DNA of 64,000 nt, taken from the NCBI GenBank assembly GCA_041654895.1, contig JBAZCR010000004.1, forward strand, positions 1,188-65,187. The letters run 5' to 3'. The notes beneath the pieces are model-generated. The model saw nothing but the letters and a program-made list of their open reading frames with translations, did not search any database and was not told the DNA's origin. Position 1 is the stretch's first letter; the number at the start of each line of letters is the position of its first letter. Positions 60,428 through 64,000 of the stretch are shown here, piece by piece. This DNA comes from Candidatus Pacearchaeota archaeon (GTDB taxonomy: Archaea; Nanobdellota; Nanobdellia; Pacearchaeales; GW2011-AR1). A program made the position numbers and the translations under genes.

Positions 60428-61171
60428 GTGTCTAACATAGATTATACTAAAGCATCAGCCCTACCTAATGATTTCATTAGAAAATGTGGTCCTAAATATG
60501 ATAATGAAAGAGAAATTTTTAAACTTGCTCAAATGGAAGTTTATAATCAACGTGGGACTCCCTGCTTCTATTATGCAGTAGATTATAATAAAAAATATAA
60601 TAGAATATGGGGAGAGGATGGAGATAGATTAATTACTCATTATTTCCCGAATGTGATGGTATACTATCAATTTCAAAGAGATGATAAGTTATGGTCTAAA
60701 TTCGGAATTGAAGATATGTCTACTTTTTCTATGTATATATCAAAAGAACATTTTAAAGATATTACAAGATTAGAATATGTACTATCAACAGAAGATGGAT
60801 TTTTCTTAACAACAGAATCTGATGATTTATTACTATTAGAACAATCATTCCTAGACTTTCATATTCCACAACAAGGAGATTTAATACAAACAGAATATAA
60901 TAACTATATTTATGAAGTTGTAGAAAGAAAAGAAACTAATGGTATGTATTTGTTAAGTAAACAATATACTTGGGAATTAATTGTTAGAATGTTTAAAGTA
61001 GAATCTAATGTTAAAATTTCTACTGATGTTTTAGATTCACCAATTTCTAAATACATAAATACTAAAGATGTTTTCGATATAAGTTCCATTGTAGATTCCA
61101 AAAAAGAAGATATCATATATAAACCAAAACCTGGAGAAAAACCAGTAAATAACCCCTTTTCTAACTGGTAA
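60428..61171 (+). CDS. probable virion protein, tandem paralog A
   Basis: Shares YNQRG, YNKKYNRIWGEDG, KFGIE and C-terminal IIYKPKPGEKP.NNPF.NW with the next gene. Confidence 0.55.
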   Translation: MSNIDYTKASALPNDFIRKCGPKYDNEREIFKLAQMEVYNQRGTPCFYYAVDYNKKYNRIWGEDGDRLITHYFPNVMVYYQFQRDDKLWSKFGIEDMSTFSMYISKEHFKDITRLEYVLSTEDGFFLTTESDDLLLLEQSFLDFHIPQQGDLIQTEYNNYIYEVVERKETNGMYLLSKQYTWELIVRMFKVESNVKISTDVLDSPISKYINTKDVFDISSIVDSKKEDIIYKPKPGEKPVNNPFSNW

Positions 61172-61176
61172 TTATT

Positions 61177-61836
61177 ATGGGTAATTTCGATCATTTTTCA
61201 AGAGTAAAAAATCAAGAATTTTTTAATTATCGAGATAATTATGATAATGAAAAATTATTATTCGATCTTTGGTCTACGGAAGCATATAACCAAAGAGGTG
61301 TATGTACACAGTACTACGTAGCATCATATAATAAAAAATATAATAGAATATGGGGAGAAGATGGAAATAGAAGATTTATAAGATTCTTTGAATGTATGGT
61401 TTTTTATAATTTACCACTTGAAGATAAAATGTGGACTAAATTTGGAATAGAAGGAACAGATAATATTACTATGTGGTCTACAAAAAGACACTTTAAAGAA
61501 GCTTCTATGTATAATGATAATGAATACATCCCACAAATAGGAGATGTGATTAGATCGAATCACGATAATAATTATTTTGAAATAACTGAAGTAGGGGAAC
61601 AAGTAGCATTATTCTTACAAAGTAAACAACATGTATGGGAATTTTTAGTTAAACCATTTAAAGATGAACATATTAAATTATCCAATGAAACAATAGATTC
61701 TCCTATTAAAAACTTTACTGATAAAAATAAAGATATTTTCGATATCAGTTCTGTTGTAGATTCTAAAAAAGAAAATATTATATACAAACCAAAACCAGGA
61801 GAAAAACCAACAAACAATCCATTCGGTAATTGGTAA
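61177..61836 (+). CDS. probable virion protein, tandem paralog B
   Basis: See 60428..61171. Confidence 0.55.
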   Translation: MGNFDHFSRVKNQEFFNYRDNYDNEKLLFDLWSTEAYNQRGVCTQYYVASYNKKYNRIWGEDGNRRFIRFFECMVFYNLPLEDKMWTKFGIEGTDNITMWSTKRHFKEASMYNDNEYIPQIGDVIRSNHDNNYFEITEVGEQVALFLQSKQHVWEFLVKPFKDEHIKLSNETIDSPIKNFTDKNKDIFDISSVVDSKKENIIYKPKPGEKPTNNPFGNW

Positions 61837-61874
61837 TTATATAAATAAACAATATATTATTTTTAAATGAGGGT

Positions 61875-64000
61875 ATGATGAATAAAAAAAGAATAACTAA
61901 ATTAAATACCTTAACTTCTGCTGCTAATGATGATTTATTGGTAATTGTTGATATTGTTGATACTAATGGGGTTAATGTAACTAAAAATATAACTAACAGA
62001 AACTTATTTCAGTATGATAATTCACAAACACAATTATCTGCTAATAATATAAGAGATGCTATTGTAGAAATTGACAGTAAAATTGAAGATATTAATACCG
62101 AGTTTAATAATCATATAGATGATGAAGATATTCATTATGTTCAAGAAGATATTAATATTTCAGCAACACAAGTAATGTTTGATAATGTTGGGACAGATTT
62201 ATCTGCTACAAATGTTCAAGATGTTATTAACGAGATTGATAAAAAAATAGATGATTTAGACACATCTTCTTGGGAATCCGATGGTATTGATCATATAAAA
62301 CCTAAAGATAATAAATTAGTAAAAGTAGAACATATTGATGGTGTAGTAGATACTTCTGCTTTTAATAATCATATAGACGATGAAGATATTCATTATGTTC
62401 AATCAGCAATTGATCATACCTCAATTCAGAATATAGGTACATATACACACGAAGATATAGATAATCATATAGATGATGAAGATATTCATTATGTTCAATC
62501 AGCAATTGATCATACCTCAATTCAGAATATAGGTACATATACACACGAAGATATAGATAATCATATAGATGATGAAGATATTCATTATGTTCAAGAAGAT
62601 ATTAATATTTCAGCAACACAAGTAATGTTTGATAATGTTGGGACAGATTTATCTGCTACAAATGTTCAAGATGTTATTAACGAGATTGATAAAAAAATAG
62701 ATGATTTAGACACATCTTCTTGGGAATCCGATGGTATTGATCATATAAAACCTAAAGATAATAAATTAGTAAAAGTAGAACATATCGAAGGAGTTCTCAC
62801 TGAAGAACTCGATCCCACGGTTCCAGAGCATGTGAAAAGCATCACCTCAGCAGACATTGAGGAGTGGAACAGTAAATTAGACTCTGAAACCGATCCCACG
62901 GTTCCAGAGCATGTGAAAAGTATCACGGAATCGGACCTTGAGAATTGGGACACGGCCTATGATTTAAGGCACAGTCATGACAATAAAGACGTACTTGACA
63001 CAATCACACAAAATTTGCTGGATAGTTTCTTAACTGAGGAGACTGACCCTACAGTCCCGGCGCATGTGAAAGGTATCACGGAAATAAATATTGCCAATTG
63101 GTATGAAGCTTATGAATGGGGAGATCATGCTGATGTAGGATATCTCACCGGATCGATTTCAGAAAATTATCTGGCCATGGGTGGTAGCAACGGACTTGTT
63201 GACAGCCCGATGTACTTTGATCCCGACTTAGATTTGTTAGAAACGCTGTCAGGTATTCGTTCAAAAAAAATTAGTGTCGGTGGAGCGATTCCCGGACAAC
63301 CTCTGGCTGTTTTAGACAGTGTTGATAATGTAATCGGGAGACTTACGCTATACTCAGGGACAGTTCCGATGACTTTGCAACCGGTTGCAAATGGGTTCTT
63401 GCTGACCGGGGGCGGAGTTTATTCTTCTCCCAATCAGTTTGCAGGAAAATTAAGACTGCAAAGTAGTGCCGGTTCAGATGCCAGATTCGATATAGACACA
63501 CCCAACGGACCTCAGAGCAAGGCTCATATTCACAACCCCGTACTAAATGAACCCTGTTTTTTGCAGATATCAAATGTTTACACAGGCGGATCGCAACCCA
63601 CTCAAGGGCTATTGCTCGGCGTTGACAATCAAGGCAGATCAGTAATACGATCAGGAGGTTACGGCCGAGGTTTGCGCATCGAGCTGGCAGACGGGCTCGG
63701 AGGCTATAATGTAGTTGTCGAACATGCGTACTACACATTAACTGAGCTACTCGGAACTCGTTTCAACGGACATGTGGGGCTCGGCGTTGACCCGAACCCG
63801 GATATGCGTCTGGCTATTGGAGGTAACCTGGGCGTAGCTGGCAGTGTTGCTGCAAGCGCAGGGTTTTTCGGCTCGTTACTCGTAGACGATGGGAGCTTGC
63901 GGCCAGTTTGGCATGAGGGAAATCTTGATCCGGCGATGTTTATGACGCTCGGGGGACCAATACAATTCATTCCAGATAACCCTGATTTGAACACGTTCGG
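61875..64000 (+). CDS. tail fibre-like protein, 3'-truncated by the window end
   Basis: Hand-translated open frame from ATG 61875 (GAGGG RBS) to the window end; NHIDDEDIHYVQ modules x4; DPTVP.HVK.IT motif x3; absent from the track because it is not closed. Confidence 0.65.
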   Translation, partial: MMNKKRITKLNTLTSAANDDLLVIVDIVDTNGVNVTKNITNRNLFQYDNSQTQLSANNIRDAIVEIDSKIEDINTEFNNHIDDEDIHYVQEDINISATQVMFDNVGTDLSATNVQDVINEIDKKIDDLDTSSWESDGIDHIKPKDNKLVKVEHIDGVVDTSAFNNHIDDEDIHYVQSAIDHTSIQNIGTYTHEDIDNHIDDEDIHYVQSAIDHTSIQNIGTYTHEDIDNHIDDEDIHYVQEDINISATQVMFDNVGTDLSATNVQDVINEIDKKIDDLDTSSWESDGIDHIKPKDNKLVKVEHIEGVLTEELDPTVPEHVKSITSADIEEWNSKLDSETDPTVPEHVKSITESDLENWDTAYDLRHSHDNKDVLDTITQNLLDSFLTEETDPTVPAHVKGITEINIANWYEAYEWGDHADVGYLTGSISENYLAMGGSNGLVDSPMYFDPDLDLLETLSGIRSKKISVGGAIPGQPLAVLDSVDNVIGRLTLYSGTVPMTLQPVANGFLLTGGGVYSSPNQFAGKLRLQSSAGSDARFDIDTPNGPQSKAHIHNPVLNEPCFLQISNVYTGGSQPTQGLLLGVDNQGRSVIRSGGYGRGLRIELADGLGGYNVVVEHAYYTLTELLGTRFNGHVGLGVDPNPDMRLAIGGNLGVAGSVAASAGFFGSLLVDDGSLRPVWHEGNLDPAMFMTLGGPIQFIPDNPDLNTF
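62109..62785 (+). repeat. 227-bp perfect direct repeat (62109-62335, 62559-62785) flanking two 96-bp tandem units (62367-62558)
   Basis: Read directly: both 227-bp copies look identical; the 96-bp units each encode 32 aa. Confidence 0.85.

Follow-up and report, generated by a model that had tools for sequence, protein, structure and literature searches.

A tail-fibre gene of a T4-like phage with an abrupt step from AT-rich to GC-rich DNA, probably a recent swap of its distal host-recognition module

The window, meaning the whole stretch of 64,000 nucleotides analysed here, corresponds to positions 1188-65187 of a 65,845 bp contig, which continues for 658 bp beyond the window. It is part of the contig of an AT-rich T4-like myovirus (about 26-29% G+C), mis-binned in the metagenome-assembled genome (MAG) of a DPANN archaeon. 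The phage context is given by UvsY, UvsW and two neck-protein genes just upstream of the fibre gene (PHROG, Pfam). At its other end the contig carries further compositionally atypical phage genes, with a GC3 of about 0.36. The bin itself holds many GC-rich contaminant contigs, among them contigs with phage genes such as tape measure and terminase, and GC-rich phage DNA is therefore present in the sample.

The open reading frame starting at 61875 is a modular fibre gene (protein P0001), located directly 3' of the two genes for gp13/gp14-like neck proteins (Table 1). The first of these, a neck-protein paralogue, recurs with 100% identity in the contigs L010-L012, which come independently from ENA and JGI. 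The second has homologues with 50-57% identity in the viral contigs L007-L009, where a different long fibre-like gene comes after it. Within the fibre protein, residues 367-426 match the PHROG families 22284/9729 'tail fiber protein'. Residues 1-77, presumed to be the virion-attachment end, gave no family match in searches of PHROG, Pfam and phage GenBank.

Table 1. Features of the fibre gene and of the two genes upstream of it, in window positions.
Feature	Position	Strand	Basis or remark
Neck-protein paralogue (T4 gp13/gp14-like)	60428..61171	+	PHROG 460/679 'head closure Hc2', E 8e-8
Neck protein, directly upstream of the fibre gene	61177..61836	+	Pfam T4_neck-protein PF11649, E 2e-8, over curated cutoff; PHROG 679, E 3e-11
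Fibre ORF (P0001)	61875..64000	+	Open to window end and contig end, 928 codons; 3' end missing
AT-rich N-terminal region, aa 1-77	61875..62106	+	Read from sequence
Repeat copy 1: S motif NHIDDEDIHYVQ and R module ending in KPKDNKLVKVEHI	62107..62335	+	229-bp perfect repeat
Native continuation past copy 1, DGVVDTSAF linker	62336..62364	+	Fits family consensus [D/E]G[A/V][V/I/L] of P0160
Two 96-bp tandem S-U units NHIDDEDIHYVQSAIDHTSIQNIGTYTHEDID	62365..62556	+	Homologous S-U units in P0160
Repeat copy 2, S and R module	62557..62785	+	100% identical to copy 1
Composition junction, within the Ile codon ATC closing VEHI	62785..62786	+	G+C and GC3 step
Foreign-composition segment, part 1: GVLTEEL lead-in and three DPTVPxHVKxIT...W units	62786..63140	+	Repeat family D4; similarity to P0002, P0158-P0169 and others
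Foreign-composition segment, part 2: Gly-rich distal region	63141..64000	+	Runs 658 bp beyond window

The AT-rich proximal half of the gene is built as a super-repeat of three modules, in the order S-R, S-U, S-U, S-R. The R module comprises about 64 residues and terminates in the invariant KPKDNKLVKVEHI. The S motif NHIDDEDIHYVQ occurs at residues 79, 165, 197 and 229, and three of these four copies share an identical 38-nt coding sequence. This fourfold occurrence had been noticed in a preliminary description of the window, together with the two 96-bp tandem units, which were indeed found at 62365-62460 and 62461-62556 and differ from each other by one mismatch. The perfect direct repeat given there as 227 bp is also present, and extends two bases further to the left, making 229 bp.

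The only sequence matched by the AT-rich half of the fibre is P0160, a protein of a related phage (contig L013) with about 77% nucleotide identity. P0160 has the same S-R, S-U, S-U, S-R order, which indicates that the repeat architecture is native and ancestral, and its two R copies have diverged to 53% amino acid identity to each other. On the sequences compared, it is thus only the perfect identity of the repeat copies in the window that is recent, the order of the modules being ancestral to the family. The two R copies have been made identical recently, whether by duplication, by unequal crossing-over at the 38-nt S motif, or by gene conversion. Across the window phage and P0160, KPKDNKLVKVEHI is unchanged in all four R modules, and the 39 nt of the R-end motif are identical at 37 positions between the two phages, whereas whole R modules are only 67-70% identical. 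Back-translated, KPKDNKLVKVEHI had 0 matches in viral and genome contigs.

Immediately after the second repeat copy the composition of the gene changes, as stated in the preliminary description. Over 300 bp on either side of the junction, the G+C content is 0.273 on the left and 0.46 on the right, and it reaches 0.51-0.54 further on; the 33 G+C out of 60 bases reported earlier for 63361-63420 is exact. GC3 rises from about 0.10 to about 0.45 across a few codons, the phage core genes having values of 0.14-0.17. In the phage core, the codons ATC and CTC, which appear past the junction, account for 8% and 1% of the synonymous codons for their amino acids, and CTC, AGC and CCC, used in the distal part, are nearly missing there.

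After copy 1 the protein continues VEHI-DGVVDTS, and after copy 2 VEHI-EGVLTEELDPTVPEHV. A complete native R module (…KPKDNKLVKVEHI) is in this way fused in frame to a complete foreign DPTVPxHVKxIT unit (GVLTEELDPTVP…). At the join the R-module tail [D/E]-G-[A/V]-[V/I/L] coincides with the foreign lead-in x-G-[Y/V]-L-T, and there is almost no nucleotide homology, which counts against the swap. The residues EGVL had been considered as proof that the donor carried an R module; this was dropped, since alignment A1 shows G[Y/V]LTEEL to be a lead-in that belongs to the foreign repeat itself, and the residues fit both families.

The GC-rich piece forms the terminal 1,873 bp of the contig, lies on the strand of the fibre ORF and in its frame, and stays open for 624 codons. 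Its three DPTVPxHVKxIT units, already counted as three in the preliminary description, are at 62805-62871, 62886-62952 and 63039-63105, and in alignment A1 the residues D, P, T, V, P, H, V, K, I and W of each unit show no variation. The GC-rich half matches only DPTVP-repeat fibres; the PHROG tail-fibre matches, the similarity of its repeats and the weak knob match described below all mark it as fibre sequence in its own right. P0002, which carries a precomputed PF12789 assignment, aligns over all three units with an E value of 3e-27, and the lead-in 'G[Y/V]LTEELDPTVP' recurs in P0164/P0169. The Pfam family PTR 'phage tail repeat like' (PF12789) itself gave no match for the ORF or for its GC-rich part up to an E value of 10. 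Past the window end, residues 737-796 of P0001 weakly match the knob of the R2 pyocin fibre (6CT8/6CL6, E values 0.0016 and 0.0087, about 60 residues) with the pattern W..W..WH.G.FNP.DYL. In the fibres where DPTVP repeats occur elsewhere, G+C and GC3 are those of their own genomes (33-52%), and in AT-rich genomes the same repeat type is AT-rich; the mismatch found here thus marks an unameliorated acquisition. Relationships between the two halves were also considered and rejected: that the R module could be a linker of the DPTVP-repeat family which has diverged is not supported (E value above 1 in a BLASTP comparison of the AT half with P0002), nor is remote homology of S-U and DPTVP units (hhalign probability 0.3%).

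A close relative of the distal domain was found neither by blastn and tblastn against phage GenBank nor in viral, genome and metagenome contigs or 5.8 billion protein clusters, where matches are limited to the repeats or to a weak knob motif, and exhaustive HMMER searches of 1.84 billion representatives gave weak local matches only. The earlier proposal was to search phages and prophages of candidate hosts for the GC-rich part; none of these contig or protein collections yielded a donor or parental sequence. Gene fragments of at least 176 aa from samples containing this phage included none with the distal part. For the junction, a 53-mer had 0 matches in viral contigs, the first 35 nt past it had 0 matches in JGI metagenome contigs and GTDB genomes, and a short query spanning it found no match among gene fragments of the assemblies holding this phage. 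Within the bin, the fibre continuation showed no end overlap at k 21 to 127 and no blastn or tblastn match; there is no second contig with a composition step, no other contig overlaps or resembles either side of the junction, and none was found to carry the genes which lie downstream in relatives. The comparison with the fibre genes of relatives, likewise proposed earlier, shows that at this position related phages have other genes or AT-rich continuations, not the GC-rich part.

Taken on its sequence, the locus is probably the product of a real and recent swap of the distal host-recognition module. The distal part of a fibre of unrelated type would have taken the place of the native continuation past the second R module; it consists of the DPTVPxHVKxIT...W repeats, the Gly-rich region and a putative knob of the pyocin-fibre type (a weak match). 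The donor, either another phage or a prophage or tailocin of the host, would have had a genome of roughly 45-50% G+C, and the fusion is in frame, at a site where the R-module tail and the foreign lead-in encode similar residues, E-G-V-L. That the foreign DNA has undergone no amelioration indicates that such a swap was recent. We infer that both sides of the junction lie on one physical molecule, and that the exchange left the virion-attachment end unchanged and altered the receptor specificity. The preliminary description had seen in the locus a replacement of the receptor-binding end with the repeat as crossover point. The replacement is the part best supported, by an in-frame fusion of fibre sequences at a module boundary; the 229-bp repeat was probably not the crossover substrate with the donor, since the join lies just past KPKDNKLVKVEHI, the most conserved motif of the family.

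Three other explanations were weighed against a recent swap. It is very improbable that the GC-rich distal half is old and resident in the phage lineage, its composition being kept by constraint at the protein level. The distal part is rich in Gly, Ala and Pro, which raises GC1 and GC2, but GC3 jumps as well and CTC, AGC and CCC are nearly missing from the phage core, and these GC3 and codon data largely refute such a residence; the AT-rich or unrelated continuations of relatives, and the AT-rich form of the same repeat type in AT-rich genomes, also speak against it. An assembly or library chimera, in which the last 1.87 kb would come from a different, GC-richer phage or prophage and would have been joined artificially at the contig tip, is unlikely. 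The piece does sit at a contig tip, a typical site of chimeric joins, where the contig end cuts the ORF; GC-rich contigs with tape measure and terminase genes occur in the same bin; and the junction is in no other collection searched, whether of viral contigs, metagenome contigs, genomes or gene fragments. A random join, however, has only 1 chance in 6 of being right in frame and strand, and would very rarely hit a fibre gene at the start of a repeat unit exactly at the end of a native module. The foreign piece is fibre-type sequence starting at a repeat-unit boundary, and hence not unrelated in function, frame or strand. A join mediated by the assembly graph would need a shared k-mer, and a copy of the AT-rich repeat end within DNA of the distal codon usage is very improbable: even if the same peptide were encoded, at least 32 nt would be shared with a probability of about 7e-4, and at least 56 nt with one of about 3e-7. 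The chimeric join at the repeat which the preliminary description offered as its other reading is unlikely for the same reason, as the repeat lies within the phage's own sequence and a k-mer in common with the GC-rich DNA is implausible. Moreover, the contig passes the 229-bp perfect repeat twice, which simple k-mer assembly does not do (the contigs L010 and L011 break there), so that the assembly probably drew on links from read pairs or long reads.

That the junction between R module and foreign part is real, and the contig nevertheless a composite path through a mixed phage population, so that one molecule need not carry both the foreign tip and the 229-bp 'duplication', seems decidedly unlikely. 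The alleles of such a population would be A-R-foreign tip and A-R-X-U-U-... with an AT-rich distal part. Polymorphism is typical of fibre genes, the samples with the same phage gave no assembled distal part, and a graph with entry, R, a loop via X-U-U, R again and exit could be threaded once whatever the true copy number. Against this stand the contigs L010 and L011, from two independent assemblies, which match the window at 100% identity and stop within copy 1, after 128 and 123 nt of it. Such a break is expected of a de Bruijn assembler if the repeat has two upstream contexts, and it requires that in those samples R is also preceded by another context, U-S-R. The U-S-R junction spans the 38-nt S motif, and at a k of 55 or more it should have to exist in the reads. 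P0160 further shows that two R modules per gene are normal in the family.

The recent swap which we favour has counterparts among known phage fibres, with differences. Side-fibre mosaics are classic in P2, Mu, P1 and lambda. As in these and in other fibres with shared modules, the fibre described here would be an instance of host-recognition modules moving between unrelated phages. Distantly related Alteromonas phages share tail-fibre modules (PMC10579305). Alteromonas phage fibres are also among the few cultured-phage matches to the DPTVPxHVKxIT repeats; unlike a shared module, the similarity covers no more than 58 aa of the repeat (52% identity), with no whole module in common.

For T4-type phages, PMC3157838, citing Tetart et al. 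1996 and 1998, places fibre exchanges at the most conserved motifs. Like the gp37/gp38 mosaics of the T-even phages, the gene in the window is a fibre gene of a T4-type phage mixing conserved and hyperplastic segments, two segments of different ancestry share one frame (GC3 0.10 and 0.45), and the exchange point is at the most conserved motif, the KPKDNKLVKVEHI island with 37 of 39 nt identical. By analogy, the expected outcome would be a fibre of chimeric build whose distal, receptor-binding part is new. Unlike those mosaics, this gene adjoins neck genes and not the gp34-38 locus, its motifs are unrelated to the His boxes or glycine-rich motifs, its partner belongs to another fibre family and to a genome whose G+C is higher by about 20 percentage points, and nucleotide homology at the join is essentially lacking. 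Small-domain duplications in the T4 gp37 adhesin expand the host range (PMC3157838, citing Tetart et al. 1996). The recent, identical duplication of the 229-bp module and the tandem 96-bp units resemble these in occurring in a T4-type fibre shaft, and differ in that the duplicated modules lie in the proximal or shaft part and not at the adhesin tip.

It is possible, though we would not expect it on present evidence, that the phage took over its GC-rich distal half from the fibre of a prophage or tailocin residing in its own bacterial host. The S and R-end motifs would then act as standing 'docking sites', at which this phage group could splice in tips of unrelated elements of very different composition although nucleotide homology is almost absent. 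The pyocin-type knob fits a capture from the host, and DPTVP-repeat proteins are common in Bacteroidota genomes. If such a capture took place, the unameliorated segment would point to the host of this uncultured T4-like phage of 26% G+C, a bacterium of about 45-50% G+C.

If the join is real, the S/R/U modules also constitute a small, previously unannotated fibre-repeat family, so far seen in only two metagenomic phages. Should the join be an artefact, it would serve as a warning on contig tips in a MAG contaminated by a phage contig and many GC-rich contigs. If it is real, it represents a clean natural swap of host recognition, between two phages or between phage and prophage, across about 20 percentage points of G+C, caught before amelioration and with the breakpoint in a single codon at the border of two repeat architectures. 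It would then mark sites at which fusions of fibre modules are possible and are retained by selection, and the foreign segment could be used in the search for the host of this uncultured phage.

Contig C4 (65,845 bp), of which the window covers positions 1188-65187, is a T4-like myovirus contig. The frame of the fibre protein P0001 opens at window position 61875, directly downstream of UvsY, UvsW and two neck proteins of the gp13/gp14 type. The frame runs for 928 codons without reaching a stop before the contig ends, and the GC-rich DNA makes up the last 1,873 bp of C4. The two neck-protein paralogues have similar 3' ends and the common C-terminal pattern ...KPKP.EK..N.PF.NW. The direct repeat in the fibre frame, reported in the preliminary description as perfect over 227 bp, is perfect but measures 229 bp by direct extension; each copy combines a motif S, NHIDDEDIHYVQ, with a module R of about 64 residues ending in KPKDNKLVKVEHI. 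The copies are separated by a short linker and by the two 96-bp tandem units (S-U) noted previously, which differ at one base. The S motif does occur four times, and three of these occurrences share exactly the same 38-nt coding sequence; the protein reads VEHI-DGVVDTS past copy 1 and VEHI-EGVLTEELDPTVPEHV past copy 2, as had been read.

The AT-rich half has a single relative among database proteins, P0160 (local E 9e-76, 50% identity), which is encoded on the ENA contig L013 from a related AT-rich T4-like phage. This contig starts with the end of a neck gene, followed by three small genes before the fibre, one of which encodes an ART-PolyVal protein and has a counterpart of about 77% nucleotide identity in another part of the window. 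The apparent stop codon of P0160 lies in untrimmed Illumina adapter (AATCGGAAGAGCGTCGTGTAGGGAAAGAGTGT) at the end of L013 (ENA ERZ27301260 k141_30481), and the protein is artificially truncated as a result. Its module order is the same as here (S-R, S-U, S-U, S-R, S-U, S-U and on) and its two R modules are diverged (53% amino acid and 67% nucleotide identity); the super-repeat of about 150 residues is therefore the ancestral architecture. All four known R modules have the tail KPKDNKLVKVEHI-[D/E]-G-[A/V]-[V/I/L] in common, and the 39 nt encoding the invariant R end are identical at 37 positions between the two phages, compared to 67-70% for the R modules overall. The AT-rich half is a native, family-specific repeat fibre, whose only recent feature is the perfect identity of its two R copies, attributable to duplication, to gene conversion or to crossing-over between unequally paired 38-nt S motifs.

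The abrupt switch from AT-rich to GC-rich DNA at the repeat end is seen in both measures of composition. In the 300 bp on either side of 62785/62786 the G+C is 0.273 on the left and 0.46 on the right, later reaching 0.51-0.54 (the earlier count of 33/60 in 63361-63420 is exact), and third-codon-position G+C (GC3) rises over a few codons from about 0.10 to about 0.45, so that the change is more than one of amino-acid composition. After 62785, the last identical base, follow ATC GAA GGA GTT CTC ACT GAA GAA CTC GAT CCC ACG; since ATC, CTC, CCC and ACG are rare in the phage core, accounting there for 8%, 1%, 5% and 6% of the codons for their respective amino acids, the boundary is sharp. Reading the EGVL at the junction as an R-module tail in foreign codons was dropped, as an alignment of DPTVP-repeat proteins gives G-[Y/V]-L-T-E-E-L-DPTVP as this family's own lead-in (KGYLTEELDPTVP in P0164 and P0169; consensus GYLTxxTExDPTVP). 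The four residues are compatible with both families, and the join lies at a point of chance agreement between the end of the first module and the beginning of the second; its product is a complete R module and a complete foreign unit in frame. The opposite end of C4 has a GC3 of 0.35-0.37, against 0.14-0.17 in the core, and codes for Ala/Tyr-rich paralogous proteins ending in ...TKIINYGLSL, of which one is truncated where the contig begins.

The three DPTVP repeats noted earlier in the GC-rich part were confirmed. They match PHROG tail-fibre families, many metagenomic and Bacteroidota-annotated proteins, some carrying Pfam PF12789; phage fibres from Synechococcus and Alteromonas are weak matches. 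A Pfam search found no PF12789 in P0001 itself. A search for the GC-rich part among phages, proposed before, gave repeat-level and weak knob matches and no close relative. For the remaining 500 or so residues none was present in viral, genome and metagenome contigs or in clustered proteins, and an exhaustive HMMER search of the distal part returned local matches only (best E 2.6e-20) around the motif W..W.ELWHSGN...LPLTGG, which also gives a weak match to the R2 pyocin fibre in its knob domain (E 0.002). Neither the S-U and DPTVP units (hhalign, probability 0.3%) nor the AT-rich half alone and P0002, a database protein resembling part of this fibre, showed any kinship, which places the two halves in different fibre families. 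The GC-rich half is true fibre sequence, but of a different type.

The slot after the neck genes is hypervariable in this phage group. In the nearest viral-contig relatives, L007-L009, whose neck protein is 50-57% identical, an additional ORF of about 160-270 residues lies between the two neck paralogues, and past the neck genes is a different fibre-like coding region of a composition normal for those phages. The first 6 kb of the L007 locus also contain an ORF for a second very long protein, of more than 1,000 residues, made up of dozens of tandem SANNLDEVDISGQSV-type units and a further repeat-rich fibre candidate.

Coordinates of features of the fibre locus and of related contigs (window numbering unless prefixed)
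Feature	Position	Remarks
Neck-protein paralogues, 3' ends	61058-61175 and 61723-61840	118 nt at 83% identity
Perfect direct repeat, copies 1 and 2	62107-62335 and 62557-62785	
DPTVPxHVKxIT...W units	start of GC-rich half	three units
Fibre-like region	L007/L008:8673-12260	one ~1,200-aa ORF
Fibre-like region	L009:8683-11773	adjacent ORFs, 335 and 705 aa
Illumina adapter	L013:3034-3066	contig end
Opposite end of C4	1-2250 (C4 630-3440)	also C4 1-1220 (L003)

An exact search with the two neck-protein sequences retrieved three more contigs 100% identical to the window, two from ENA MEGAHIT assemblies (L010, L012) and one from JGI 3300015214 (L011). L010 and L011 end inside copy 1, at 62234 (128 nt in) and 62229 (123 nt in). 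Only when a repeat has two different upstream contexts does a k-mer graph assembler halt some k-1 bases inside it; with two exits alone the contigs would reach 62335, but they end earlier. The end of L011, at repeat start + 122, exactly fits a graph of k=123, presumably the last value in the JGI MEGAHIT list. Other samples therefore also contain the U-S-R context and, with it, a second R copy. No fragment of the fibre-gene interior of at least 176 residues, AT- or GC-rich, occurs in these three assemblies, which have no bearing on the R-to-GC-rich junction.

We regard it as probable that the swap is real and recent and that the molecule exists as assembled. That the contig is an assembly chimera joined at its tip is unlikely, although the GC-rich segment is the contig tip and the junction was not found independently in viral contigs, JGI metagenome contigs or GTDB genomes. 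The bin is also dirty: G000 (755 kb), a 26%-GC DPANN archaeal bin that includes this bacteriophage contig, is contaminated, and the sample also contained GC-rich phages and bacteria. At least 14 of its small contigs have 39-58% G+C (C11, C16, C18, C21, C22, C25, C26, C28, C33-C36, C38 and C40), GC-rich ones encoding a conjugation ATPase, a tape measure, a terminase, a SusC-like gene and a transposase; none of its other contigs overlaps, resembles or continues the fibre or belongs to this phage. Against a chimera, a random join would preserve both strand and frame one time in six and would almost never meet a unit boundary of a second fibre gene. A graph join needs a shared k-mer, and even for a donor encoding the same peptide its codon usage puts the probability of sharing 32 nt at about 7e-4 and that of sharing 56 nt at about 3e-7. 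Moreover C4, unlike a plain k-mer assembly, crosses the 229-bp perfect repeat twice, so that pair or long-read links were probably used.

Slightly less probable still is a real junction in a contig that is a composite path through co-existing alleles, and very little is left for all remaining explanations together. That the GC-rich half is an old resident domain of the phage lineage is argued against by the GC3 step and the codon data, and by DPTVP-repeat fibre genes elsewhere, which have the composition of their own genomes (33% to 52% G+C); in the comparison with fibre genes of related phages, moreover, the relatives have at this site either other genes or a continuation that stays AT-rich.

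The recent replacement of the distal end put forward earlier is thus supported by the module-boundary fusion, the GC3 and codon step and the difference from relatives, but the repeat was probably not the crossover site with the donor. The foreign side of the join is almost without nucleotide homology (GA.GG.GT over 8 nt), and the event would therefore have been illegitimate or microhomology-mediated. T4-type phages recombine efficiently, and their exchanges are reported to fall at the most strongly conserved motifs (PMC3157838, citing Tetart et al. 1996 and 1998). The native side of the join would be marked by the conserved R-end island, and selection may have kept an in-frame, module-complete product. 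The four copies of the 38-nt S motif and the 229-bp R copies would be substrates for unequal crossing-over, which could alter shaft length and shift the tip between alleles. The donor probably had roughly 45-50% G+C, and a host prophage or tailocin fibre is an attractive candidate source. Mosaic fibre genes are already classic; a little unusual here are the size of the composition gap, the breakpoint resolved to a single codon between two unrelated repeat architectures, and the small and undescribed S/R/U fibre family itself.
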